Positions 12,732 through 26,336 of a DNA stretch of 32,000 nt are shown piece by piece (within the stretch, counting starts at the first letter, position 1; each line of letters starts with the position of its first letter). This DNA is from Thermococcus kodakarensis KOD1 (lineage in GTDB: Archaea > Methanobacteriota_B > Thermococci > Thermococcales > Thermococcaceae), in contig NC_006624.1 of the NCBI RefSeq assembly GCF_000009965.1, forward strand, positions 1,440,001 through 1,472,000, written 5' to 3'. The translations under genes were made by a program, and so were the position numbers. Below the pieces are notes generated by a model that was not told the DNA's origin, ran no database searches, and saw only the letters and a list, made by a program, of their open reading frames with translations.

Positions 12732-13382
12732 CTAAAGTCCAAACGCGCCCTTTATGCCGTTGATTATCATCTGAACTGCCATTGATGTCAGTATCAGACC
12801 CATCATCCTCGTCATCACCTTGATCCCGACCCGCCCAAGCCGGGCCTTTATCCTGTTGGCGGAGCAGAGAACGAACCAGACGGTAATCCCAATCAGGATT
12901 ATCGTCAGAATTACCGCGAACCTCTGAAGGTTGGTCGTGCTTTTGGCCATGTAGAGCATAACCGTCGTTATCGCACCCGGGCCGGAGATAAGTGGTATCG
13001 CCAGCGGAATTATTGCAACTTCCTCAAGAGTTACAACTTCCTCGCTGAACTCCTCGGTTTCTTCGTTGCTGATCTTTACCGATGACAGCTTTCCGGAGAG
13101 CATATCGAGGGCCATCCTGAATAACAGTATCCCACCTGCTATGGCAAACGCATCTGTGCTCGACCCGAAGAACTTGAATATCCACTGCCCGAGCAGGGCG
13201 AAGACCACAAGGGTTGCAACTACCGATATGGCTGTCTTAGATGCGATCTCCCTCCGCTCCCTCCAGGACAGGTCGTGGGTAACGCTCAAAAAGACGGGGA
13301 CTGCACCCACGGGGTTCGTTATCGCAAACAAGCCTCCGTAGAGAAGTATCAGATACTTGAGAAACTCCACCACTTCTAACAT
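12732..13382 (-). CDS. MarC family (UPF0056) integral membrane protein
   Basis: 216 aa, 6 TM. The N-terminal LFAITNPVGAVPVFL motif is typical of MarC/UPF0056. Confidence 0.85.
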   Translation of the reverse strand: MLEVVEFLKYLILLYGGLFAITNPVGAVPVFLSVTHDLSWRERREIASKTAISVVATLVVFALLGQWIFKFFGSSTDAFAIAGGILLFRMALDMLSGKLSSVKISNEETEEFSEEVVTLEEVAIIPLAIPLISGPGAITTVMLYMAKSTTNLQRFAVILTIILIGITVWFVLCSANRIKARLGRVGIKVMTRMMGLILTSMAVQMIINGIKGAFGL

Positions 13383-13489
13383 GCCACCACCAACACCGAT
13401 ATGTTAAAGCGGTTAAAAATGTCCCGCCCAATTGAGCAGTTACAACAAAAACTTTTTTAAGGGCAAAAGTTACTTTTTATTGATGTATT

Positions 13490-13765
13490 ATGGGACACAC
13501 GATTTATTATAATACTTCGATACAAAAATGGTGCGGATTCAAGAAATTCATGAGGAGAGTATGTTCTGGCGTTGGTTATCAGTTAAAAGAAGAGAAAGGA
13601 ACTCTCATAATATTTCCCCAGAAGAGGGGCGTCGAACCCCTCAGAATCAAAAAAGAGGGGGATGGCTTCGCTAAGACCAACCTAATCGAGCCAGAGCACT
13701 CGATATACCTGCTGATACTTCACTCGGTTTCGTCCTTTGGCTCGGTCTCCGTTTGGGAGGATTGA
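13490..13765 (+). CDS. Questionable hypothetical ORF (91 aa)
   Basis: ORF track only. AT-rich, no RBS noticed, and its 3' end overlaps the last operon gene by 46 nt (convergent). Confidence 0.3.
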   Translation: MGHTIYYNTSIQKWCGFKKFMRRVCSGVGYQLKEEKGTLIIFPQKRGVEPLRIKKEGDGFAKTNLIEPEHSIYLLILHSVSSFGSVSVWED

Positions 13766-14472
13766 GTGTCAAGGTAAACTTCAAGTATCCTAATGGGTCT
13801 GGAGCTCCTGAACACCCGCTCTTCCACGAGTAGCTTAACAACAACCCCAGGCTCGGCATCAGGAACCGCGGGCACCCAGTAATAGCCGGGTTTAACGTTG
13901 GCTGCCATGTCGTCGTGGACAAAGACCTTAACCAGGTCGTTCTTGACTTCCTCGACGACGCCGTAGGTGTAGTCCCTGCCGTAGCGAGACTTAAAGTAGT
14001 GACGGAAAAGGATAACTACAAGTCCAATAACGCCAAGGTATGCGTAGTACCAGTAGGCATCCAGAGATAGCCTCCTCAAAAGTACGTATCCCACATACGA
14101 AACAAAAGCTATGGTGCTAACCACAAGATAGAACACCCGATAAGCCTCAAAATCCAAAATGTAATCAGAGTACCGCACGAGAATAAATCTCAAAACTAGG
14201 AAATAGAAAGCGCTGAGAATTATTAGGGCTAGAAAGTAACCGAGATAAGCTACAACCACGCCGGTTACTAGGTATCCTAAGAATATCAACTGGAGCAGCA
14301 AACTAGTGACCTCATGGGGAGTCATCCACTGTTTTTGTATTGGCCACGACTTGGGTGGACGAGCTGAGGGGATTGGCTTGAGCATCATTTTCATGACTCC
14401 AGCAGTTCTTTTAGCAACTTTCTCTACTCTCTCCCCAATACTATAAAGGATATCTCCCACGTCCAATTTCAT
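13720..14472 (-). CDS. Operon gene 10: 4-TM membrane protein with a C-terminal soluble beta-rich domain and acidic tail
   Basis: ATG 14472 abuts the stop of the upstream gene (TGAATG). Four TM helices between residues ~55-160, then YGVVEEVKNDLVKVFVHDD...VVVKLLVEERV. Confidence 0.75.
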   Translation of the reverse strand: MKLDVGDILYSIGERVEKVAKRTAGVMKMMLKPIPSARPPKSWPIQKQWMTPHEVTSLLLQLIFLGYLVTGVVVAYLGYFLALIILSAFYFLVLRFILVRYSDYILDFEAYRVFYLVVSTIAFVSYVGYVLLRRLSLDAYWYYAYLGVIGLVVILFRHYFKSRYGRDYTYGVVEEVKNDLVKVFVHDDMAANVKPGYYWVPAVPDAEPGVVVKLLVEERVFRSSRPIRILEVYLDTQSSQTETEPKDETE

Positions 14473-15591
14473 TCACCCGGATGCATTATCAAATAGGGCC
14501 TTTTTAGTATAATTATCGAGTTGGAACCGTCGCTGTTCAGGACTAACAGGCGTTCCGGTAACATTACAGCTATACGGGGGAACTACGCATTTGAGGAAGT
14601 AGTAGTCAACACTGTCATAGTTATCTGGGATTGAGCCCCCAATGCTCTGAATAGCACCTAGAAGCGCTTTATCAATAGTTCGGTTAGGAACAATAAACGT
14701 TGTAAGGCCCACAGGAGTGGGCTTCATCCCAAGGGCATTTTGAAAAGTCTCAGCAAGATGAAGATAATAGCTGTGGTGGCCATTTGGATTCGTGTTCACA
14801 GTTCCTTCAAATCTCTCAAGCACAGTCGGATAGTATACTCCTGCAGAGGCATTGTCATAGAGTCCTACATAGCACCAGTTCAGGACAAGTTCGTTTATAT
14901 CCTCAGATTTGTTGACATTATAGTAACCATATTCTTCTCCAGGATACGGAATTCTACATGGTTCTATTATTCTTGTGTATAGACCGTTCAGCATTCTAAC
15001 AATGAACGGATCTTCAAAACCCTCAACACTTACTATCGAGTACACGTAACCGTTGGCGGGAAAATCGCCCGAGTACCGTACTCTACCTGAGCTATCAGTT
15101 ATTGTTATATTCCTTAACTTCACTCTAACAGCAACGTGGAACGAGTCAACAGGCCCGATAAGCATCTCCATGTGAGAATTAAAAAGTTCCTCCGGGGTAG
15201 ATGGCTCAATACTCATCCCCATTGAGGAGAGATAATTAACAAAATTAGAATACCAGGACTCCAGAGTGACACCCCCCATAGTAGGACTGATATTCCCACC
15301 TATTGTTCCATACTTCATAAGCTCTTCTAGGGCTTCAGATGCATTTGAGACAAAGCTGTGGTTGATAACGTACTCAGTGAGGGCGATGTATGCCCTCTTG
15401 AAGCTCAAATCAACGGCATTCTGAAGGTCGTCCCTTAGGGTGACAGTGCTGAAATACTGCCTCTCCATCAGACCCCTCTCAGCTTGATTCACAACGACGG
15501 CGCTGGAAATGCTCTCGTAAGTTGCGGCAAGGAGAAGGAGTGGTATCAGGAGGAGCAGCACGGTCATGTTTATTAGGTACCCCCTGCGCAT
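14473..15591 (-). CDS. Operon gene 9: secreted/anchored protein (372 aa) with a degenerate class III-like N-terminus MRRGYLINMTVLLLLIPLLLLAA
   Basis: I prefer ATG 15591, which shares one base with the upstream TGA (TGATG) and is preceded by GGAGGGGAGGC. Many N-x-S/T sequons. Confidence 0.75.
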   Translation of the reverse strand: MRRGYLINMTVLLLLIPLLLLAATYESISSAVVVNQAERGLMERQYFSTVTLRDDLQNAVDLSFKRAYIALTEYVINHSFVSNASEALEELMKYGTIGGNISPTMGGVTLESWYSNFVNYLSSMGMSIEPSTPEELFNSHMEMLIGPVDSFHVAVRVKLRNITITDSSGRVRYSGDFPANGYVYSIVSVEGFEDPFIVRMLNGLYTRIIEPCRIPYPGEEYGYYNVNKSEDINELVLNWCYVGLYDNASAGVYYPTVLERFEGTVNTNPNGHHSYYLHLAETFQNALGMKPTPVGLTTFIVPNRTIDKALLGAIQSIGGSIPDNYDSVDYYFLKCVVPPYSCNVTGTPVSPEQRRFQLDNYTKKALFDNASG

Positions 15592-18182
15592 CAGCCTCCC
15601 CTCCATATCCTCAGGGTAACTGTAATGGGCTCAATGGACGTTGGAACGTTCCTGATGCCAATGGCCTTCCCCTCAATCCCAACCAGCCGGATCCTTATGG
15701 GGTTCTTACTTCCACCCGGAATGTATCTACTGTCCCCGAGATGCTCCTTCCACAGCCTCTCGTCCGCCCCCAGCTGCAGGAAGAGGCGCACAATTGCATC
15801 GTCCAAGGCATATTTTGAGGGATCCAAATCCTCAACAGATTTTTTGAGGGGGGTATCCGAGGGCTTGCAGTTCCCGACTATGACGCTGTCTCTAGTGCCA
15901 TCACCGTTTCCAGTTAGGTCGTACCAGTATGTTAAGTTATACCCACAGGCATTGTCTTGGGCGTAGTAGGTGAAAACTTTTCCATAGGGGGCGTAGCCGT
16001 TGAGGAAATAGTGGACGATTGCGCGACTTACCGCGGGCCTGAAAGTATAATAGTCGTCTGTACTCTCGATTTTAAACTTATTAATTGAACCATTAACCAT
16101 TATATCCTTTGAGATTTTCGTGTATGCAACGCGGATCAGGTATACATCTAGGGGAAAACTGAGAAACTCCGTTTGATCTGGTCCTTCGCTTAGGGTTATA
16201 TTATTAGATGTGTCAATCAAACCAGGAGTATAGATTATTCCTGTCCATACATCAACGTACCAGGGGATGGCCTTTCCGGGGAGGTAGTAGCTGAAGTGCA
16301 TCTCGGTGTCATCTAAGGATTCCAAGTCGTGAGTCTCCTCAATTGGAATGTAAAATCTGCTCCCAGTAACCGTGGGATTGTATGATATTCTTATCCACGA
16401 GTAGGGGTACCCATAGAGTATCCTTTTGTTGTTCCATTCACGATGATAATCTTGCCCTGCATATAAAACTGAATCAAGGCCGTATTCGGCATCGAGCATG
16501 ATAACGAGGTTGAAATTCTTTCTGGAGAGGCTTTCCAGGGTAGTGTACCTTAGCAGTCCCCTCATTATGGTTGAATTGCTAATATAAAGGTTGTTTCCTA
16601 TGATGCTCGTGTTTTCATAGATTAAATTAAGGACAGTGCCGTTGGAGTAGTAAACCCTAACTTCATGTACCCCACTAAAGGTAAGGTTCATCTCAATCCC
16701 CGTTACATTACCCGGGACGAAGATGGAGTTAAGATAGTAGATACCAGTACCTTTGCTAGTTACATCGTAGAGTTTTATTAACCCAGGGTCATCGGCGTGC
16801 GGCGTTGAGGTTACGTAACCCAGATCAACCCAGCTACCGCTTCCCAGGCCAACTTCACGAGAGTCGTCATAACGCGAGACTTTCAAATACACTGTATTAG
16901 TTTCTGGCCATATTGAGGATAGGGGTATCGTAAGGTTACCTTCGGAGTTCTTCCAAGTCTTGTTGTTGAATTTGATTACATCAAAAACGTTCCCGTCTTG
17001 TCTAGTGTACACGCTGAGTACTCCATACCTTGGCCTAGTATCGGAGGGAAGGTCTATATCAAATTTAATATCAATGTTATTGTTATTGTAATAATCCTCA
17101 TCTCTACAGGAGTAGCCTGGTATAATTTCAGCATAAACACCCCTTATGATTCTCGCTGTTCTGGTATATGCCTTAGAAGACGAGATAACCCAGTGCCCCC
17201 CTAACCAACTCCGCTTCCATTTCCGAGTTATTTCCACATAGACTCCCGAGTTAAGAACGATACCCAGCTGGTCCCCACTGGGGTATTCAAACAAAATCTT
17301 AGTCACTTTATATTTCCTCGTATTGCCAACACTACTCAAGTATGAAAGATATAGCTTTAAACTATACCCATCTTTAGATAGAGTAACACCCCCTTTGTAT
17401 GATACACTCCACCCACCTAAATCGACGTTTAAGTCCACAGTACCACCACTGTACCTTCCCATAACCCGGAATCTTCCAGAAGAAACTTGAGTTGGTTTGC
17501 CTGAAGGCGTCTGGTACTGAATGGATAAAGAATTAACGGATAGGGTATAAAAATTGTAATCATGTCCACCCGGCCGGGGATTGGTGCAATACCCTCCTCC
17601 AGCAAGAACCCTCTGGATTCCGACGAGCTTTCTCTGCTCTGTCAGGACCTTCGTCAGATAAGCCTTCGCAACATAACCCCTAGGGCTCTGGTTGAAGAGA
17701 TAACCACTGACCATCATCGTAGCCGTTCCGACGTCACTGGCATTCTCATAGGAGTTGTCAAACGTGAGGAAGGGATCCGTGTAGTTGTTGATTATGAGCT
17801 GATATTTGTAGCCCCCAGCTAGATCCCTCAATATTTCACCGAGTATTAAACTTGCGTATCCTTTAAACTCAGGATGCTTGACTGAAAGTGCCCAATATGT
17901 GGCCGCTATCTGGAGGGGAGGCATCTTTGGATCAACGTACGTTAGATTTAGGGTTCCATTGGAAATCCACGTATTGATAAGCGAGGGAGAGACGAGCTGG
18001 TCTAGGGGAACAGTCCTCAATGTTTGGAGGATTCCTTCTGCAAGCTGTTTGTTTTCGGCACGCAACTGAGTAGCGTAAATACTAGAAGAGTTCTCCGTTA
18101 CTGCAACTACGCTAACCAAAACGAGAGAAACCAGTACAAGGGAAAGAATAGCGTCAAGAGTGAACACAAAACCCCTTCTCAT
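15591..18182 (-). CDS. Operon gene 8: giant pilin-like protein (863 aa) with class III signal peptide MRRG|FVFTLDAILSLVLVSLVLVSVVAV
   Basis: ATG 18182 lies 1 nt after the upstream TGA and is preceded by GGGGTGAG. At least 16 N-x-S/T sequons counted by eye. N-terminal module is paralogous to gene 7. Confidence 0.85.
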   Translation of the reverse strand: MRRGFVFTLDAILSLVLVSLVLVSVVAVTENSSSIYATQLRAENKQLAEGILQTLRTVPLDQLVSPSLINTWISNGTLNLTYVDPKMPPLQIAATYWALSVKHPEFKGYASLILGEILRDLAGGYKYQLIINNYTDPFLTFDNSYENASDVGTATMMVSGYLFNQSPRGYVAKAYLTKVLTEQRKLVGIQRVLAGGGYCTNPRPGGHDYNFYTLSVNSLSIQYQTPSGKPTQVSSGRFRVMGRYSGGTVDLNVDLGGWSVSYKGGVTLSKDGYSLKLYLSYLSSVGNTRKYKVTKILFEYPSGDQLGIVLNSGVYVEITRKWKRSWLGGHWVISSSKAYTRTARIIRGVYAEIIPGYSCRDEDYYNNNNIDIKFDIDLPSDTRPRYGVLSVYTRQDGNVFDVIKFNNKTWKNSEGNLTIPLSSIWPETNTVYLKVSRYDDSREVGLGSGSWVDLGYVTSTPHADDPGLIKLYDVTSKGTGIYYLNSIFVPGNVTGIEMNLTFSGVHEVRVYYSNGTVLNLIYENTSIIGNNLYISNSTIMRGLLRYTTLESLSRKNFNLVIMLDAEYGLDSVLYAGQDYHREWNNKRILYGYPYSWIRISYNPTVTGSRFYIPIEETHDLESLDDTEMHFSYYLPGKAIPWYVDVWTGIIYTPGLIDTSNNITLSEGPDQTEFLSFPLDVYLIRVAYTKISKDIMVNGSINKFKIESTDDYYTFRPAVSRAIVHYFLNGYAPYGKVFTYYAQDNACGYNLTYWYDLTGNGDGTRDSVIVGNCKPSDTPLKKSVEDLDPSKYALDDAIVRLFLQLGADERLWKEHLGDSRYIPGGSKNPIRIRLVGIEGKAIGIRNVPTSIEPITVTLRIWRGG

Positions 18183-18183
18183 A

Positions 18184-20673
18184 TCACTCACCCCATACCC
18201 AGAGTTTTAAAATGGCCACACGATAAATCGGCTGCATAACGGCACCAATATTACCAACGTCCTCAATCTTGACCTGTGGGAACGTGTTATGATACACCCA
18301 CAGTGAGAACGTTATACCCTCACCCATCTTAGATGAGGATGGTACAAAGCACTTCATGGGAACGATAAGGCTATTTCCTGTCCTCTGCACTACACAGTCT
18401 TGAGGGGCTTCAGTATAGTTGAACTTCGGGATAAGGGTCAAGAGTCCATAGTACAATTTAGAGTTATTTCTAACAACGACCATCACAGTATACCCAACGT
18501 ATTCCCCGGTACTGAACGAGGAGATAAGGGTGAAATTACCGTCGGAATCCGGAACAGTCACATTGAGTGCCCCGAGAGGCATCCATGAAAACATTCCCTC
18601 ATAAAGCAAAACTTTTTTATTGCCCGCAACGGTATAGCTCTGGTTGTACGTCCTATATGACACCCGAACAGTCCTCTCCGAATGCTGGATCCACGTTGAG
18701 TTTTCCATAGATTGTTCAATTAAGTTTTCATTGCTCACAAAAAATCCGCCCACCATAGAGATATTAACCCAAGCAGATTTTTCTGGAGAAAACTCATAAG
18801 TTACGTTAACGCTAGTAACGTTAATACTAACGGAGCTACCCTCCCCAGAGGCTCTACATTCGGGATACTGGAATTCCGGAGCGGGGGGCATAAGCAGGGA
18901 GGGGAGATCGAAGTCAAATGCCTCGTCCTTATCAGGGGGAAGAGATAACGAGCCTGTGCCGTTAATCTGGATGTCAAAGTTCCAGTTAACGGACATCATT
19001 TCAAATTCTATTTGATAAAACCATCCTTCCCAAAAATCATCCCAGTAATAATACCCAAGGAGAATCTCGTTGTTATAAATCAATACGTCTCTGTGCTTCC
19101 ATCTTCCTGTCATTAAGTTGTACCTGTATCCATCAAAAGAATAGCTACTCTGGCTTGTCCCAGTCCCATTCATTGCGTACCATGTGTCGCCTTTGGCATA
19201 GAGCCATCCATTTACGTAAAAGGGATTCCCAGACTCAAGCCCGATAGGAGGCTGAGTATCGTAGTACTCGTAAACATTTCCCTTAACTATCAAAGTCCCC
19301 CTTACAGTGAGTTTGCCCGAAACATATAGGTTGCCATAAACGATAAGTTTACTGTTCCAATCTATGGTAAGATCTCCATCAACATATAAGTTACCATAAA
19401 CAACCAATCTTCTGCCCGAATCAATTGTCAAGTCGCCATTAACGTGAAGATCTCTGTGGAATATATTAGTTCCCGCTACCTTCATATCCCCATTGATAAA
19501 CGCGTCCCCGTATACATCAACAGTAGTACTAGGATTCTGGGAAAAGTCCCCATTAACGTAGAGCTCGTCTTCAACCTTTAAGTTCCCAGATGGCAAACTC
19601 AATGAGCCATTGACAAAGGCCGTTCCTCCCACGTAGACTCTAAGACTTGACTGTCCATTAAAGTTTCCATTTACAAAAAGGTTTCCCCCAACCCACAGCT
19701 TCCCACTGTTTCCAACAGTGGCATCGCCACCGACATAGAGGTCATTAGAAACGTTGACGTTGCCGTTGCTCTGAACATCCAGACTACCGAGAGAGTAAAG
19801 ACTCTCATTAACCGTTAAGTATCCGCTTGATCGAACAGTCGTATCACCATACACATAAAGGTTTTTACCAAAAGTTGCATGTCCATTTGATCTAATATCA
19901 AGAGCTCCGCCAATATAGGAGTCATCTTTTATATTGGTAGCATAACCACTGCTTCCTATATGGGCATCTCCCGTAACGTAGATAGCAGAAGTCGATAGCC
20001 ATCCAGCCGAACCAACATCGAGACTGCCATTAACAGCCAAATATTGGCTTATATTAACCTTAAAGTTGTCCCCAATCTTAGTATTTCCATATACACACAC
20101 GTAATATGGATTGTAATAACTACCAAACGAAACTCCCCTATGAGTAAAATCAAACTCCCCTTGTGAACACTGGGAAGCGTTTATCAGGACAGGTGTGTCC
20201 GAGTGGTTTCCAAGCTCACCCACGCTACATGCCGTCAGTAGTTCAGCACCTGAAACAGGGGATATTGTATAGTTATAAACTAGTTGGACAGATTGATTTG
20301 GCATGGATACCATCAACTTAAAATTATATCCGTTGGAGAGATCCCACAGAGCGCTCTGAAGAGAGGGATTTCCAGCTTTCACCCCCTCAACAAGGGCCAT
20401 TACTTTTGAGTAATCCAAATTGTTACCCCTAAGCGACCTTAAACCAGGAACAATTACCGAAGCTATGTTCTTCTCCCAGTCTTCAGGTTCCCCAGGACTT
20501 CTCGTTAAAACATCCAGCATGTTCTCGGCTATGTTCGCCCTCTCGTACCAGCCAACGAGGGAAGTTATCTCGTTCTTAAGGTTCTCAGAGGTCGCTGAAA
20601 CAGTCCCAACCACCATTATTATTATGACGAGTGACAGCATCGCATCCAGGGAAAAAATCTGTCCCCTCCTCAC
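18184..20673 (-). CDS. Operon gene 7: giant pilin-like protein (829 aa) with class III signal peptide MRRG|QIFSLDAMLSLVIIIMVVGTV and a central beta-solenoid
   Basis: GTG 20673 overlaps the upstream stop as GTGA and is preceded by GGGGGGAG. About 20 N-x-S/T sequons by eye. Confidence 0.85.
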   Translation of the reverse strand: MRRGQIFSLDAMLSLVIIIMVVGTVSATSENLKNEITSLVGWYERANIAENMLDVLTRSPGEPEDWEKNIASVIVPGLRSLRGNNLDYSKVMALVEGVKAGNPSLQSALWDLSNGYNFKLMVSMPNQSVQLVYNYTISPVSGAELLTACSVGELGNHSDTPVLINASQCSQGEFDFTHRGVSFGSYYNPYYVCVYGNTKIGDNFKVNISQYLAVNGSLDVGSAGWLSTSAIYVTGDAHIGSSGYATNIKDDSYIGGALDIRSNGHATFGKNLYVYGDTTVRSSGYLTVNESLYSLGSLDVQSNGNVNVSNDLYVGGDATVGNSGKLWVGGNLFVNGNFNGQSSLRVYVGGTAFVNGSLSLPSGNLKVEDELYVNGDFSQNPSTTVDVYGDAFINGDMKVAGTNIFHRDLHVNGDLTIDSGRRLVVYGNLYVDGDLTIDWNSKLIVYGNLYVSGKLTVRGTLIVKGNVYEYYDTQPPIGLESGNPFYVNGWLYAKGDTWYAMNGTGTSQSSYSFDGYRYNLMTGRWKHRDVLIYNNEILLGYYYWDDFWEGWFYQIEFEMMSVNWNFDIQINGTGSLSLPPDKDEAFDFDLPSLLMPPAPEFQYPECRASGEGSSVSINVTSVNVTYEFSPEKSAWVNISMVGGFFVSNENLIEQSMENSTWIQHSERTVRVSYRTYNQSYTVAGNKKVLLYEGMFSWMPLGALNVTVPDSDGNFTLISSFSTGEYVGYTVMVVVRNNSKLYYGLLTLIPKFNYTEAPQDCVVQRTGNSLIVPMKCFVPSSSKMGEGITFSLWVYHNTFPQVKIEDVGNIGAVMQPIYRVAILKLWVWGE
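19270..20100 (-). repeat. Coding tandem repeats of ~20 residues (consensus h-Y-V-x-G-D-h-x-h-x-x-x-G-x-L-x-V), ~13 units, predicted beta-helix/solenoid
   Basis: Residues ~197-473 of gene 7, e.g. NGDLTIDSGRRLVVYGNLYV / DGDLTIDWNSKLIVYGNLYV. The two 60-nt units 19321-19380 and 19381-19440 match 42/60 at DNA level by hand alignment. Confidence 0.8.
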
Positions 20674-21173
20674 GGGAACTCCCCCCACTCGTCGTTCACG
20701 CTCACGTTCAGCACAACTTCAATACCGCCGTAGTACAGCTTACCGTCCCTCTCGCCGAAGCCCCTGATTTCCTTCAGGGACTCAACCATGGCCTCGCCGA
20801 CGGCGCCCACGAGTTCTTTATCTACCGTTGAGTTACTCTCGCCGAGGGTTTTAAACTTAACCAAGACTGTCATACTGTCTTCCGTTTCATTCTGGACTTT
20901 CAGACCCTCGAACACAAACCTTCCAGATAGGTAATCATAGTAGGCGGTGATATTATCATTAAGGCAGTCAAACTCAGTCCTGTTCTCGGCTATCACTCCA
21001 ACGCTGACGTACGATGCGACGTCCGAGGCGACCGACCTAATTCCCGCCAGGACAGAAACTTCGGAGTTGTTCTGCATATAGGAAGGGAGAATAACGACTA
21101 CCCCCATGAAGATAACGGCCATTATGAACAGCATTTCAAGGGCCGTCTGGCCCCTACTTCTTAACGCGGACAT
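20670..21173 (-). CDS. Operon gene 6: small pilin-like protein (167 aa), class III signal peptide MSALRSRG|QTALEMLFIMAVIFMGVVVIL
   Basis: ATG 21173 is preceded by GGGTG (6-nt spacer). Overlaps the upstream gene by 20 nt. Confidence 0.8.
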   Translation of the reverse strand: MSALRSRGQTALEMLFIMAVIFMGVVVILPSYMQNNSEVSVLAGIRSVASDVASYVSVGVIAENRTEFDCLNDNITAYYDYLSGRFVFEGLKVQNETEDSMTVLVKFKTLGESNSTVDKELVGAVGEAMVESLKEIRGFGERDGKLYYGGIEVVLNVSVNDEWGEFP

Positions 21174-21597
21174 CAATGGCACCCGCCGTTTGGTTGTAGG
21201 TGGCGTAAACCCAGAGATCTGGGGACGTCGAGTTCAGCGTAACATTGGTAGTCGCCACGAGGGGAACGGGGAGGTTCTGATAGACCCTGTAGTGTTCACC
21301 CCCTATTACCGCCGAGACATCTAGGCGTCCAGATGTGGAGTTGAGCACGACGGTTATTTTATCGCCAGCCCTAAGGTTCATCGGCACAGTTTTTTTAACG
21401 GAAAAGCCAGGCCCGGAAGAGTAAACTTTAGTCACTGTGTCCCTGAGATCAATCGCAAAGACCTTGAGCTTTGACGTCTTGTCCGTGAGCTCCGCACTCT
21501 CGACCTGGCGGGACGCAAGGGAAACTAGGCTGAGCACGGTGAGGGTAATCAGGGTGAAGGCAAAGATGACGTCAATGCTCAGCTGTCCGCGTCCCAT
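21154..21597 (-). CDS. Operon gene 5: small pilin-like protein (147 aa), class III signal peptide MGRG|QLSIDVIFAFTLITLTVLSLVSL
   Basis: ATG 21597 shares one base with the upstream TGA and has GGTGA 6 nt upstream. GTG 21600 is an alternative start. Confidence 0.8.
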   Translation of the reverse strand: MGRGQLSIDVIFAFTLITLTVLSLVSLASRQVESAELTDKTSKLKVFAIDLRDTVTKVYSSGPGFSVKKTVPMNLRAGDKITVVLNSTSGRLDVSAVIGGEHYRVYQNLPVPLVATTNVTLNSTSPDLWVYATYNQTAGAIDVRVKK

Positions 21598-22262
21598 CAC
21601 GACTCACCTGGGTTGATGTAGATGTGTATCTCCCCAGCGGTCTCGTTATAGGTCCACATCTCGTCTTGATGCGGATTCCACCCCGGAGTCCACTCCACAA
21701 CTATCTTCAGGTAGGAAGGCAACGTCTCGGGGGGAATTACAAGACCATAGACAGTTGTGGAGGTGCTCGACCCATCAAGCTTAATTTGAGTGCTGTTCCC
21801 AAAGGTGGAGTTCCAAACGGTAGAGTTCCCGAGGAGGTTGACGGCGTATAAGGATCTGCTCCAGAATACGCTCTTATTGTCGCCACTCAGAGCAGCGTTT
21901 GTTGTTCCCGTTCTGTTTATGATCGTAATATAAACCCCATAGTCACTTCCATAGGGCCCATAGGTGATGAATATTCCAGGATCAGTAACGCTCCACGCTC
22001 TCTCAAGATAGGAGGGGTTCCTAAGATAAACCAGCTTGACGTAGGATGTAGCCTTGGATCCCGGGCCCTGGGCATAGACCTGGCTGATCGTGTTCGAGAT
22101 CGTATTTGCAAGGTTTTTCTCCTCAAGGGCCGTCTGGATTTTGAGAGTTTCGACCGATGGAGTACCCTCGCTAAACGACGTGTTCCGTATGGAGTACAGG
22201 AGTAGTATCGTAAACAGCCCGAAGATTATTATGAACTCAAGCGATATCTGACCCCTTCTCAC
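21597..22262 (-). CDS. Operon gene 4: pilin-like protein (221 aa), class III signal peptide MRRG|QISLEFIIIFGLFTILLLYSI
   Basis: The track ORF starts at TTG 22289. GTG 22262 is preceded by GGAGGGG with a 7-nt spacer and gives the same MRRGQ leader as its neighbours. Confidence 0.8.
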   Translation of the reverse strand: MRRGQISLEFIIIFGLFTILLLYSIRNTSFSEGTPSVETLKIQTALEEKNLANTISNTISQVYAQGPGSKATSYVKLVYLRNPSYLERAWSVTDPGIFITYGPYGSDYGVYITIINRTGTTNAALSGDNKSVFWSRSLYAVNLLGNSTVWNSTFGNSTQIKLDGSSTSTTVYGLVIPPETLPSYLKIVVEWTPGWNPHQDEMWTYNETAGEIHIYINPGES

Positions 22263-22304
22263 AGATGTTCCCCTCCGTTCACTACCCAATACGGCACCCT
22301 CTAT

Positions 22305-22919
22305 TTAATCATTGCCCTCCACTTCTACAACAAAAGTACCAGAGCGCTGGTTAAACGTTTTGACGCCAAAATAATCGTTTCCAAAGAGCTTAAAGCGATA
22401 GTTCTCAGGCCTTAGCCCATGCCTTCTCACGAGTTCGGCCATCTCATCTATGAAGAGCTGAGTCAGTTCGTAGTAGCTGAGATCCATTCTATCCCTAATC
22501 CACCATCTAAGGAAAAGAACCAGCGGAGCAATTGACAGAACTGGGAGTATGACGAGAGACCCGGATAACACCAAAAGGCCTGTTGAGACCGCAATGACAG
22601 CACCATATAGGGCATAGGCAGTTTTTTCGGCCTTCTTCAAAGTCTTTACCTTCTTCACTTTAGCCTCCCAGATGTCAAGAAGGGCAGGATTGTAGAAGTC
22701 AAAGGCCGTGTGTCTCTTCCCTTTCGCTATTCTCTGCCTGATTAGATCATCCCAGTCATCCGTGTAGTATATGACTTCCCCACGAAGCCTGGCCCGCTCG
22801 GCATCTATGGAGGAGATTATCCTGATGATATCCTCCGCACTCTCGTGGGCTATGTGGGAATAGACGGACTTCTCATCGAGGTCGAGGGCAGCTTCAACAG
22901 AGTCCTTTACTATGCTCAT
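22305..22919 (-). CDS. Operon gene 3: membrane protein (204 aa) with a cytoplasmic N-domain, a central TM hairpin and a C-domain
   Basis: ATGA overlap (22916-22919) with the tubulin-like gene. Hydrophobic hairpin AYALYGAVIAVSTGLLVLSGSLVILPVLSIAPLVLFL. No family recognised. Confidence 0.75.
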   Translation of the reverse strand: MSIVKDSVEAALDLDEKSVYSHIAHESAEDIIRIISSIDAERARLRGEVIYYTDDWDDLIRQRIAKGKRHTAFDFYNPALLDIWEAKVKKVKTLKKAEKTAYALYGAVIAVSTGLLVLSGSLVILPVLSIAPLVLFLRWWIRDRMDLSYYELTQLFIDEMAELVRRHGLRPENYRFKLFGNDYFGVKTFNQRSGTFVVEVEGND

Positions 22920-24094
22920 CGGGATACCTCCCGATACTCTGCAAATCCCTCAGGATCGTCTGAGCCTGTTGCCTCCAAACTTGGGTATACATCATCAAAG
23001 TCGGGAAGGCCAGTGAGCAGTTCCTTCTTCTTTGTTTCGGCCTCGCTCTTTGCCTGCATGAAAGACCTTGCGTATTCCTTAGCCGTCCTGACGATGTTCT
23101 CAATGCTCTTGCTCTCGTATATTCCACTCAAGAGCGTGACGACCTCGACGTCCCTTTCCCGAGGATCCGGGTAGAACCCCCTGAATATCTGCTTGCCCCT
23201 TATTTTCGATGTGAGATAATCCAGTGCCTCAAAGATATCGCTGGCCTTCAAAACCTCTGGCGGTCCGTGGATGGCGACAAGACCGTAGAGGGCAGATTCA
23301 ATGTTCGCATCCAGGTAGAGCCCCTCGCTTTCAAAGGACTTGATGATGAGCCTGGAGAGGTTCTTTACCTTGGAAGCGTCTGCTTTGGCATAACCTACGG
23401 TTGCAAAGCTACCAAATGCCTTCAGAACGAACTTCAGGTCGCTCGCGTCGAGGGTCTGCTCACCGGGCACGTCCACGAGAGCAAGCAGGGAGGCTATTCT
23501 CTCGACAATGGTGTAGTTTATCTTCTCGTAGGCACTGCTTATATCGTCCCCGCTCTCCTTGAGCTTGTTGTTGTCAATGGCTATGATTGAGTCCGCTACC
23601 TTGGAGAGCTTGTCTATCGTTATAGCCGCGTTTATTGTTGGCCTTATCCCTTCCTCCTTTAGTGGGAGCGCCCCGATGGCAACGACGAGAGAGTCCGGGT
23701 ATTCCTCCTTGAGGGCCTCTGCCAAAACCGGAGTTCCCCCTGCACCAGTCCCGCCGCCGAAGCCGAAGGTAAGGAAAAAGATGTCCACGTCTTCGTAGCC
23801 AACGATGGAACCTATCTTCCTCATCACCAGCGGCAGGTCGCGCTTCATGGCCTCTCTTCCAAGCAGAGGGTTGGCATTAACTCCCTTGCCCCCAGTTATG
23901 CTCTCCCCTATGAGTATCCTCCTGTCGTGGGGAATGTGCTTGAGGTATTCCAGGTCTCCCCTGGATGTGTTCAGCGCGATTGTATCAAAGTCAACCAGCG
24001 CAAACAGATCAGCTATCTTCGTCCCGCACTGTCCAACTCCTATTATCAAGGCCCTCAAGACGTTATCACCCCTCGAAAAGTATTTTGACTTCAT
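22916..24094 (-). CDS. Operon gene 2: tubulin/FtsZ-superfamily GTPase (392 aa), divergent third paralog type (FtsZ3 / non-canonical CetZ-like)
   Basis: Nucleotide-binding loops IIGVGQCGTKIAD (nt ~24023-24034) and FGFGGGTGAGGTP (tubulin signature, nt ~23738-23758), then IAIDNNKL and an acidic C-terminal tail. Start uncertain: ATG 24094, or TTG 13 codons downstream preceded by GGTGA. Confidence 0.9.
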   Translation of the reverse strand: MKSKYFSRGDNVLRALIIGVGQCGTKIADLFALVDFDTIALNTSRGDLEYLKHIPHDRRILIGESITGGKGVNANPLLGREAMKRDLPLVMRKIGSIVGYEDVDIFFLTFGFGGGTGAGGTPVLAEALKEEYPDSLVVAIGALPLKEEGIRPTINAAITIDKLSKVADSIIAIDNNKLKESGDDISSAYEKINYTIVERIASLLALVDVPGEQTLDASDLKFVLKAFGSFATVGYAKADASKVKNLSRLIIKSFESEGLYLDANIESALYGLVAIHGPPEVLKASDIFEALDYLTSKIRGKQIFRGFYPDPRERDVEVVTLLSGIYESKSIENIVRTAKEYARSFMQAKSEAETKKKELLTGLPDFDDVYPSLEATGSDDPEGFAEYREVSR

Positions 24095-26303
24095 CAGGAG
24101 TTATTGCGCCGTCTCCATTGAGATCCTTAACGCTGAACACCACGTAGGCACCGTGCAGATACTTGATCATCGTTGGGTTAACGATCAGGTCAATTGCCGG
24201 GAGAACTTCCTTCTCGGCCAAGAGCACTAGAACATAACCGTCCTGGGTTCTTCCAGGGATTATGGCTACTAGATTCTCCTTTGAGTACTTTTGACCATTT
24301 ATCTCGACGTAGTTGCCCGCAACAGAGATATTGACATAGGGGTTGTAGACGCTTGTGTCAAAGCTACCGAATGGACCAACAAAGATGTGATTGCCCGTGA
24401 GTTCTCTGCCCATGTCGCCCTCTTTGAGGAGCGGTACGCCGCCAAAGGACTCAATTATTCCGCTGAGTTTCTCCGCCGCGGAGGCATAATCCGGGCTGTA
24501 ATGAATGTACCAAGTTCCGCTGCCCAGCTTGCTAACCACGGACGAGATAAGGACAGGCGGCAGGAAGCCCGACTCCATGGCAAACTTGAATGCCAAAGCC
24601 TTTTCTACTATCCTGTTGCTGTTCTTTATCCCCTGGAGCAACGTACTCGCCATATCAAAGTAGTTCAGGTCATATCCATGCTCTATGAGCAGTTCGAGCG
24701 CTCTAACAGTGTACTCAATCGACGGAGAAGCCGTTGAAACCTGGCCGAGGATGTTTACGCTCTTCTTATAGTGACCCCAAAAGCCATCCTCAAGCCTCTG
24801 AGCGAGGAGCCAGTCGAGGTGGGGCTTAAGTTTGGCCTCGTCCACCGTGTCTGAAAGAGCCTCAAGGACTAGCAGGGTAGTCGGTACGTCAGGGGTACTC
24901 ATGATGGTGAACGGAGTGAACGGATAGTTTATGAGCAGTCCCCAGCCGCCGTCAGTAAGGGAGAGCAGCCAGCTAGCGGGAGCATTAACCCCAGTAATGT
25001 TGAATGCCTTGAGTAAGTTTATTCCCATCGCCGTCTGGAGGGGCTGTGGTATTGAGAAGAACCCCCTCCAAGCGAACTCTGAGTACCTGTATTCGTTTAT
25101 GAAATCAATGACGGATTGCCTCTCCTCGGGAGGCATATCGGAATACCTGGCGAGGATTAAGGCAGTATAGTAAAAGTCCTGGGTGAGCATACCCTCTGTC
25201 TCAACCTCTTCCATAGCGGACTTCAGATGATTTTCTGCCCATGCCGTTGCCTTGTCAATTGCAACCTGAGGCTTGGGAGTGCAAAGGCTCAAAAATTCGA
25301 GGGCATAATAGGTTGGCTTGGCCCGGGAATCTTCTCCGGGGGTGTAACCCCAGCCACCATCAGGGTTTTGTAGCGAGAGAATTTCATCACACATCTGGGA
25401 AACTGTCGGATATTCCTCACTGGAGATGACGTCTGAGAGAGAAGCAAAGGCCATGACCGCAAAGGAGGTAGGAGTGACGGAATCCAGCTCAGGGAGAGGC
25501 CAAATTGGCTCGGTGAGGACGAAGGTCTCGTTATGGGAGCCGAGGCTCTCCAGTATCACCAGAGAACGTGGAAGTTCTGAGGTCATGTTTTCAGTATACA
25601 GCGTGAGAGCGTACGTGAGCATGGCCCTTTCAGTGGGTTTTAGCTCTCCTGAAAGCATGGCGTAGGCAGTTTCAATAAGAGCAGAAACGTTGGCGTAGCC
25701 GATATAGTGGTACGCAATAAGCTTAAGAGCGACCATCTTGGGGGATGTCTCATTAATGGACTCCAGATAAGAGACGGCCTTGGATACAGTCGAATCCTCA
25801 ATGGTGTATCCGTTTGCACCCAACCCCCATAGCGCGACAACCGTTAAGTAAGGCTCCGCAGGGGTTTTCGAACCGTATCCCCATCCCTGACCATTGAAGG
25901 AGTCTAAAAGGTATCTGACACCAGATTTAATTTCACCGGAAACGTCAATGGTCTTAAGGGGGAGATCTTTCACAGCCCCCAGGGCCGCCAGTGCGTATCC
26001 CGTGTCGAGGGGGTTACTGATTTCATTCGGGTAATAACCCCACCCACCATCGGAGTTTTGAGCGTTTTTAAGGTAATCAACAAGCTCCAGAATAGAGCTT
26101 TCAACCGTGGACTGATTCTCAACTTTTCCATAGAGCGAAGCCATGGCCATCAAGAGCAGAGACGAGTCCCTAACGTTATTGACGTAACCCTGGGCACTAG
26201 AAAGGTAGAGCACCGACTCGTCCAACATTGAGGCGCTTGCAACGGGGGCAGTAATAATCATCACAGTAAGGATTACAAGCAGCACCCTCGAATTTGCACA
26301 CAT
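24066..26303 (-). CDS. Operon gene 1: Sec-secreted alpha/alpha-toroid protein with prenyltransferase/terpenoid-cyclase-like repeats and a C-terminal DxNxDG calcium-loop motif
   Basis: ATG 26303 is preceded by GGTGGTGAAGG and gives MCANSRVLLVILTVMIITAPVASA|S (Sec-type, AxA site). Repeats: SDGGWGYYPNE, GQGWGYGSK, PDGGWGYTPGE, TDGGWGLL, EDGFWGHY. C-terminus KDLNGDGAITPDEV (nt 24090-24125). Confidence 0.85.
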   Translation of the reverse strand: MCANSRVLLVILTVMIITAPVASASMLDESVLYLSSAQGYVNNVRDSSLLLMAMASLYGKVENQSTVESSILELVDYLKNAQNSDGGWGYYPNEISNPLDTGYALAALGAVKDLPLKTIDVSGEIKSGVRYLLDSFNGQGWGYGSKTPAEPYLTVVALWGLGANGYTIEDSTVSKAVSYLESINETSPKMVALKLIAYHYIGYANVSALIETAYAMLSGELKPTERAMLTYALTLYTENMTSELPRSLVILESLGSHNETFVLTEPIWPLPELDSVTPTSFAVMAFASLSDVISSEEYPTVSQMCDEILSLQNPDGGWGYTPGEDSRAKPTYYALEFLSLCTPKPQVAIDKATAWAENHLKSAMEEVETEGMLTQDFYYTALILARYSDMPPEERQSVIDFINEYRYSEFAWRGFFSIPQPLQTAMGINLLKAFNITGVNAPASWLLSLTDGGWGLLINYPFTPFTIMSTPDVPTTLLVLEALSDTVDEAKLKPHLDWLLAQRLEDGFWGHYKKSVNILGQVSTASPSIEYTVRALELLIEHGYDLNYFDMASTLLQGIKNSNRIVEKALAFKFAMESGFLPPVLISSVVSKLGSGTWYIHYSPDYASAAEKLSGIIESFGGVPLLKEGDMGRELTGNHIFVGPFGSFDTSVYNPYVNISVAGNYVEINGQKYSKENLVAIIPGRTQDGYVLVLLAEKEVLPAIDLIVNPTMIKYLHGAYVVFSVKDLNGDGAITPDEVKILFEG

Positions 26304-26336
26304 ACCTTCACCACCTAAGGGAAACGTTGTCATGAG

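Follow-up and report, generated by a model that had tools for sequence, protein, structure and literature searches.

How are CetZ filaments attached to the archaeal cell envelope, and how are they coupled to machines at the cell surface? These questions are raised by a locus in a 32,000-nucleotide stretch of the Thermococcus kodakarensis KOD1 genome (NC_006624.1, positions 1,440,001 to 1,472,000; hereafter the window), in which cetZ, the gene of a tubulin-superfamily GTPase, is directly followed by a gene encoding a 204-amino-acid (aa) protein with a membrane hairpin. Published work has already identified the GTPase and linked it to a type IV pilus-like gene cluster (Makarova 2016; Brown & Duggin 2023). 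In the literature that we searched, we found neither a membrane receptor nor a direct partner for any CetZ, no experimental work on the T. kodakarensis CetZ and no papers naming TK1667-TK1670. The new element is therefore a hypothesis about the second gene, whose product belongs to a catalogued but uncharacterised family: we tentatively propose, as a reading that is plausible though short of probable, that the 204-aa protein serves CetZ as its dedicated membrane receptor or adaptor.

The GTPase is a Thermococcales CetZ, and neither FtsZ nor tubulin. Against Pfam it matched Tubulin (PF00091, E-value 8.9e-30) and CetZ_C (PF21011, 9e-17; 61.5 bits against a cut-off of 21.6, with only profile positions 99-180 matched), and no match to FtsZ_C was found in that database. 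PF21011 is carried by all Thermococcales homologues. The FtsZ equivalog TIGR00065 scored 123 bits, below its cut-off of 295.2. The best matches among PDB sequences were Haloferax volcanii CetZ1 (1.8e-40), CetZ2 (7.7e-34) and the Methanosaeta CetZ (1.3e-31), followed by weaker matches to FtsZ (1e-24 to 1e-28) and tubulin (about 1e-9), so that overall the GTPase is nearer to FtsZ than to tubulin. When the AlphaFold2 (AF2) model of the GTPase (predicted local distance difference test, pLDDT, 88.9) was searched with Foldseek, the top four matches were CetZ structures (4b46, 4b45 and 3zid; E-values 1e-28 to 1e-33), FtsZ came next, and tubulin was absent from the top 50. With tubulin at an E-value of about 1e-9 against 1e-40 for CetZ, and with this Foldseek result, an identity as a eukaryote-type tubulin or artubulin was rejected. 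In a neighbour-joining tree of a small taxon set (13 sequences and 310 columns, without named archaeal FtsZ1 or FtsZ2 or tubulin), the Thermococcales proteins formed a clade with CetZ1, CetZ2, a CetZ-like protein and the Methanosaeta CetZ, and E. coli FtsZ, the FtsZ of 9v7v and the homologue P0082 formed a separate FtsZ clade, both with 100% bootstrap support. The GTPase thus falls with CetZ and outside FtsZ, in line with the preliminary description of this DNA. A published tree of 550 sequences agrees with this placement and has the Thermococcales proteins as the deepest-branching CetZ; every Thermococcales cetZ adjoins type IV pilus-like genes (Brown & Duggin 2023, PMC9856176). The gene is the single CetZ of T. 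kodakarensis. By analogy with its family, the protein would polymerise with GTP into filaments or sheets beneath the membrane.

The loops of the GTPase had been described as tubulin-like rather than FtsZ-like. The three motifs behind that description (GVGQCGTKIAD, GGGTGAG and IAIDNNKL) are all present and are invariant or nearly so across the homologues, and the difference from FtsZ holds: in an alignment of CetZ and FtsZ, the T1 loop reads G.GQ[AC]G[GT]K in CetZ and GVGG.G.N in FtsZ, and helix H7 begins with DN in CetZ and PN in FtsZ. The description is not new, however, and was somewhat overstated: these features are common to CetZ1, CetZ2 and CetZ-like proteins, and this alignment shows the GQCG and DN loops to be traits of the whole CetZ family. 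Both resemble tubulin, which was not part of the alignment. No GTPase-critical residue has been lost: loops T1-T7 are intact, T4, T5, N163 and the T7 aspartates are conserved, and G7, G9, G12, G101-G105, G107, E136, N163 and D204 are invariant even in comparison with distant relatives. The T7 loop TLDASDL aligns with N.DFADV of FtsZ and with VDSSE of CetZ1. A GQCG T1 loop is also carried by three distant tubulin-superfamily proteins (P0083-P0085; 26-29% identity), which are probably viral tubulins; the gene of one of them adjoins those of an AAA ATPase and an intein-containing terminase (L034, 844-2034).

The 204-aa protein is identical to BAD85857.1 of T. kodakarensis KOD1, and accession-number counting alone suggests the locus tag TK1668. 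It is probably arCOG05790, an equation that we infer from the catalogued properties of that family (two transmembrane helices, no class III signal, 16 genomes, clade 1 pilus loci), all of which match. The preliminary description had one hydrophobic hairpin separating soluble N- and C-terminal domains, and this is what we find: hydropathy gives a single hydrophobic stretch of 41-43 residues (about 100-142), and the AF2 model (pLDDT 79; predicted template modelling score, pTM, 0.73) consists of N-terminal helices, long helices at 78-119 and 124-167 joined by a turn of 3-4 residues, and a beta hairpin. Since Lys/Arg-rich stretches flank the hairpin at both ends, both domains should be cytoplasmic. 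We rejected a type IV pilin or class III signal for this protein, as its N-terminus is a 95-residue soluble domain and its hydrophobic segment is internal (100-142).

Conservation within the protein is uneven, with a mean identity of 78% in the N-terminal domain, 59% in the C-terminal domain and 28% in the membrane helices. The conserved residues of the C-terminal domain include D146, Y149, Q154, F156, E159, Y174, F176, Y183 and F184. In the N-terminal domain, where many residues are invariant, the invariant loop GKRHTAFDFYNP has a pLDDT below 50 for residues 68-75. Invariance combined with low model confidence is a pattern typical of an element that would become ordered only on a partner. We found 156 homologues, of which the named ones are all from Thermococcus (53-92% identity), and a Palaeococcus copy was identified separately (L032). 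A profile search of 1.84 billion representatives returned one full-length cluster, some fragments and one remote match, and apart from this remote match it did not find the family beyond Thermococcales-like archaea. The protein had no Pfam or NCBIfam match even at an E-value of 10, the family profile matched nothing among PDB sequences at the same threshold, and the best Foldseek match of the model in the PDB had an E-value of 0.8.

The two genes lie in a tightly packed 10-gene operon that runs from 26333 to 13720 on the minus strand, with cetZ second and the 204-aa gene third. The other operon products have a signal-type or class III-type N-terminus or are polytopic, so CetZ is the only soluble cytoplasmic protein of the operon. 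The 204-aa gene is directly 3′ of cetZ in 30 of 30 related loci, namely all 28 genome loci that we sampled, a divergent lineage (L031) and Palaeococcus (L032); Pyrococcus was not in the sample. Such a pairing is beyond chance. The start of the 204-aa gene overlaps the stop of cetZ in 29 of the 30 loci (27 of the 28 metagenome-assembled loci and the two further ones). In T. kodakarensis this overlap is the ATGA at 22919-22916 that had been described before, and a Shine-Dalgarno (SD)-like GGAGGT stands 6 nucleotides upstream of the ATG. In L031, the most divergent lineage (CetZ 73% identical), cetZ directly follows Taw1 and the gene for the secreted cyclase-like protein that opens the operon elsewhere is missing at that position (L031, 1-1238); the cetZ/204-aa pair and the pilin genes are kept. 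By a wide margin, the most conserved parts of the operon are CetZ (86%) and the N-terminal domain of the 204-aa protein (78%), compared with only 33-50% identity for the exported proteins. In a mirror-tree test of 17 related genomes with one control gene (the neighbouring housekeeping gene Taw1), CetZ distances tracked those of the 204-aa N-terminal domain (partial Mantel r = 0.58, p = 0.0006), and did not significantly track those of the 204-aa C-terminal domain, the cyclase-like protein or the first pilin. P0081, a canonical CetZ of another archaeon, is monocistronic and has no comparable transmembrane partner. A second protein considered as a CetZ with such a partner, P0084, was set aside, since it adjoins a terminase and is probably viral.

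The one remote relative of the 204-aa family is P0212, a 555-aa ‘MinD’ from a metagenome-assembled genome of Candidatus Hydrothermarchaeota (L030, 10001-11668). It has a ParA/MinD ATPase at residues 1-227 and a module homologous to the 204-aa protein at residues 374-551 (hhalign probability 95.6%, E-value 1e-8), with an FDFY motif, two transmembrane helices and a similar C-terminal domain. Because of this fusion to a MinD/ParA ATPase, it appears that a module of the 204-aa type can serve as the anchor of a cytoplasmic nucleoside triphosphatase that forms polymers or acts in positioning. In Haloferax, it is MinD proteins that guide CetZ1 to the cell poles.

The arrangement that we propose is as follows. 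The 204-aa protein would span the membrane as a helical hairpin and present both conserved domains to the cytoplasm on a long helical stalk. Its N-terminal domain would bind CetZ and hold the polymer at the membrane where the surface structure of the operon is built, much as FtsZ is tethered by ZipA, FtsA or SepF. If there is any coupling to the pilin-like proteins, it would be indirect, passing through the membrane or through an assembly ATPase or platform encoded outside the window. In this respect our proposal departs from the preliminary description, which had the protein as a candidate tether of the filament to the exported pilin-like proteins. A direct bridge of that kind is unlikely: since only the turn of 3-4 residues lies outside the membrane, the protein cannot reach an assembled fibre, and the membrane helices are its least conserved part.

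The C-terminal tail of CetZ was considered as a partner-binding element. It had been described as an acidic, probably disordered tail of about 45 residues. Its acidic and non-globular character is upheld, with nine D/E against two R in the last 34 residues and AF2 confidence dropping from about 73 to about 45 across the last 30, but it is shorter than described, as helix H11 extends to residue 348 of 380 in the AF2 model and leaves about 30 flexible, non-globular residues. Within it lies the motif LL(S/T)GLPDFDDxYP (LLTGLPDFDDVYP in T. kodakarensis), which had not been singled out before. It is invariant or nearly so across the 78 homologues from Thermococcales, and the single most divergent of these is the one that carries substitutions. 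The AF2 model has a short helix here (354-357), followed by low confidence. About half of the Thermococcales CetZ proteins (P0001-P0078) have a second C-terminal element after the motif, ...D[IV]....K.LRR..D, which the T. kodakarensis protein and many other short-tailed ones lack.

Several observations weigh against the proposed adaptor role. The tail motif has a counterpart in the Methanosaeta CetZ, whose terminal INDLEEIY aligns with it, and Methanosaeta is not among the organisms in which the 204-aa family was found. As the motif is common to both, it should be older than the 204-aa family, and we do not count the acidic tail as evidence for a 204-aa partner; its role as a partner-binding peptide is weakened accordingly. 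The tail of CetZ1 is thought to touch the neighbouring subunit, and Haloferax CetZ1 binds liposomes without an adaptor. Synteny extends over the whole operon, so that adjacency cannot be separated from operon membership, and starts and stops overlap or abut at almost every junction in the operon, not specifically between these two genes. At its size the mirror-tree test is weak evidence, and in it the co-variation of the 204-aa protein with the secreted cyclase-like protein (partial r = 0.69) is no weaker than that with CetZ. Finally, no further relatives came up when the C-terminal module of P0212 was used as the query, which leaves the fusion as a single sequence, and the neighbours of its gene are not pilin or pilus genes.

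In the main rival reading, the 204-aa protein belongs to the pilus machine as a scaffold similar to ArlX or to GspL/PilN, which makes no contact with CetZ and lies beside cetZ by operon membership alone. It would then contact the assembly ATPase, a TadC-like platform, the prepilin peptidase or membrane-embedded prepilins. We regard this as a serious possibility, if on balance a doubtful one. The conservation of the whole 10-gene order fits it, as does the fact that the 204-aa protein co-varies with the cyclase-like and pilin-like proteins as well as with CetZ. However, clade 1 pili also occur in Methanococci and Methanobacteria, whereas our profile search detected relatives of the 204-aa protein only in Thermococcales-like archaea, the remote match aside. 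Moreover, the only part able to touch prepilins, the membrane helices, is precisely where conservation is lowest (28%), and neither the operon nor the rest of the window contains ATPase or platform genes.

A variant of the adaptor reading, and an unlikely one, is that the 204-aa protein binds CetZ as a regulator, for instance as a membrane-bound inhibitor, capper or bundler, in the manner of EzrA or MinC with FtsZ. The FDFYNP loop might then mimic PDFDDVYP of the CetZ tail and compete with it for the same groove. The invariant loop AFDFYNP (22686-22721) does resemble the invariant tail motif PDFDDVYP (22982-23020), the CetZ1 tail has been proposed to dock on the adjacent subunit, and the helical cytoplasmic stalk loosely recalls helical FtsZ regulators. 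The likeness, however, amounts to six residues and may be due to chance, no fold match to known regulators was obtained in our searches, and with the tools at hand a regulator and an anchor are inseparable. A last reading, with the GTPase as an ordinary FtsZ paralogue of cell division and a small open reading frame (ORF) that is spurious or unrelated, is highly improbable: some sources do use the name ‘cell division protein FtsZ’, but this explanation is already refuted by the TIGR00065 score, the CetZ_C match, the tree and the Foldseek result, and by the 204-aa ORF itself, which is conserved in over 150 sequences and has many residues that never vary.

If binding of CetZ by the 204-aa protein were confirmed, this would be the first CetZ adaptor and would provide a handle on a tubulin-like protein in a type IV pilus-like system; if it were refuted, the 204-aa protein would stay an uncharacterised component of the pilus system, and the finding would be an ordinary one. 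The locus presents a hypothesis of only two genes, the sole CetZ of a genetically tractable archaeon and a strictly conserved candidate partner, and the operon around them hints at the cellular process in which they would act. More speculatively, and with a low probability in our estimate, CetZ and the 204-aa protein might together form a membrane-anchored, tubulin-based platform that positions or scaffolds the Thermococcales pilus-like structure, an archaeal counterpart of PilM-PilN, or might be part of a polar cone or cap. Cryo-tomography has shown a polar cytoplasmic cone or cap in both T. kodakarensis and P. furiosus.

The positions of all features are collected in Table 1, and the start of cetZ differs there from that of the longest ORF. 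The latter spans 22916-24094 on the minus strand and encodes 392 aa from an ATG at 24094, which had been taken as the extent of the gene. The gene itself stands, but its start does not: all 78 Thermococcales homologues begin (MRALIIG...) at the residue that matches L13 of this ORF, a TTG codon at 24058 with an SD-like GAGGGGTGA 7 nucleotides upstream. Because all the homologues begin there, the start is most likely TTG 24058 rather than ATG 24094. The upstream 755-aa gene stops at 24066 and is not overlapped by a cetZ that begins at 24058, so that the apparent overlap of 29 nucleotides between the two genes vanishes.

Table 1. Features of the cetZ locus of T. kodakarensis KOD1, in positions of the window
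Feature	Position	Strand	Evidence
Secreted 755-aa protein, prenyltransferase/squalene-cyclase-type alpha/alpha-toroid repeats, first gene of the operon	24066..26333	-	Pfam SQHop_cyclase_C, Prenyltrans, SQHop_cyclase_N
cetZ, tubulin-superfamily GTPase of the CetZ family, 380 aa	22916..24058	-	Pfam, PDB matches, Foldseek, homologue starts
T1 nucleotide-binding loop GVGQCGTK, residues 7-14	24017..24040	-	conserved in about 75 of 78 homologues
T4 signature GGGTGAG, residues 101-107	23738..23758	-	no substitutions, even in homologues of 26-35% identity
Start of helix H7, IAIDNNKL, residues 159-166	23561..23584	-	N163 invariant
T7 (synergy) loop TLDASDL, residues 202-208, catalytic acidic pair	23435..23455	-	D204 invariant, D207 nearly so
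Conserved C-terminal tail motif LLTGLPDFDDVYP, residues 347-359; variable acidic tail onward to 22919	22982..23020	-	78 homologues
ATGA, overlap of cetZ stop and 204-aa gene start	22916..22919	-	sequence
204-aa two-helix membrane hairpin protein, candidate CetZ membrane adaptor	22305..22919	-	exact match to BAD85857.1
N-terminal cytoplasmic helical domain (predicted), residues 1-95, most conserved part	22635..22919	-	78% mean identity
Invariant loop GKRHTAFDFYNP, residues 67-78	22686..22721	-	invariant in 75 sequences
Transmembrane hairpin, residues ~100-142, SGS turn	22494..22622	-	hydropathy; AF2
C-terminal cytoplasmic domain (predicted), residues 143-204, helix then small beta hairpin	22308..22493	-	59% identity
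Seven downstream operon genes: pilin-like, larger pilin-like, DUF2101	13720..22289	-	class III signal peptide matches

In the Thermococcales, the ‘clade 1’ (Epd-like) type IV pilus-like locus takes the form of this operon. The presence of an FtsZ-family GTPase and a squalene cyclase in the clade 1 pilus loci of Thermococci has been noted, and the 755-aa protein has been named as arCOG03396 (Makarova 2016). This protein has an N-terminal hydrophobic segment (residues 9-38), ends in an EF-hand/dockerin-like loop, DLNGDGAITPDEV, and is 30-39% identical among relatives, far below its two downstream neighbours. For the observation of GTPase and squalene cyclase, Makarova 2016 credits Szabo 2007. 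Of the seven downstream genes, three encode pilin-like proteins of 230, 148 and 170 aa, another three encode larger proteins (834, 866 and 377 aa) whose N-termini are pilin-like, and the last encodes a DUF2101 membrane protein (7.9e-97). R-G-Q/R-G-[FY] N-termini are found in the pilin-like proteins of the operon. Among 28 related loci, the gene order is the same wherever the contig reaches far enough. A gene for a pilus assembly ATPase or platform was not found in the operon or the rest of the window.

The 834-aa protein (18184-20688) has RRGQ followed by a hydrophobic helix and bactofilin-type beta-helix repeats (PF04519, 8e-08), and is probably an adhesin-like fibre protein located outside the cell. 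One of the large genes in the Palaeococcus operon carries DUF2341. Across 13000-21000, where the large pilin- and adhesin-like genes lie, the G+C content is 0.42-0.49, compared with 0.50-0.55 elsewhere, and these genes align just partially between relatives. The partial alignment suggests fast evolution or exchange of these genes in the distal half of the operon.

How does this locus compare with known systems? The closest are the solved CetZ structures, H. volcanii CetZ1 and CetZ2 (PDB 4B46 and 4B45) and the Methanosaeta thermophila CetZ (3ZID). The T. kodakarensis protein has the same fold (template modelling score 0.79-0.91, root-mean-square deviation 2.1-3.1 Å) and shares with them the CetZ_C domain, a Q-containing T1 loop, DN at the start of H7, and an acidic tail at the C-terminus that contains a short conserved motif. 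Furthermore, haloarchaeal cetZ2 also has a published association with a type IV pilus-like locus. However, Thermococcales CetZ is only 28-33% identical to the solved proteins, has Cys in place of Ala in the T1 loop (GQCG) and, according to the literature, has a short M-loop. The T. kodakarensis cetZ also belongs to a lineage in which the gene is always operonic and directly upstream of a membrane-hairpin gene, whereas other CetZ genes have no such neighbour.

The logic of the proposed pair is like that of FtsZ with its anchors ZipA, FtsA, SepF and EzrA, in that a tubulin-superfamily polymer with a flexible acidic tail would be matched with a small membrane protein facing the cytoplasm, although binding is putative here. 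The 204-aa protein has no similarity in sequence or fold to these anchors. It is a hairpin with two predicted cytoplasmic domains rather than a single-pass or amphipathic-helix protein, and its context is a surface-filament operon rather than cell division.

The operon resembles the clade 1 (Epd-like) pilus loci of Methanococcus maripaludis and Thermococci (Makarova et al. 2016) in its minor pilin-like class III genes, giant adhesin-like proteins and DUF2101. In contrast to clade 1 pilus systems, the operon and window have no ATPase or TadC-like platform; conversely, among clade 1 loci the GTPase and cyclase-like protein are noted only in Thermococci, and the 204-aa family is found only in Thermococcales-like archaea. 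The proposed arrangement can also be set beside bacterial PilM-PilN and crenarchaeal ArlX. PilM is an actin-like ATPase with a bitopic membrane partner whereas CetZ is tubulin-like, the 204-aa protein has no periplasmic domain, and there is no homology. As in these systems, the proposed pair would couple a small membrane protein to a cytoskeletal or scaffold protein on its cytoplasmic side, in the setting of a type IV filament.

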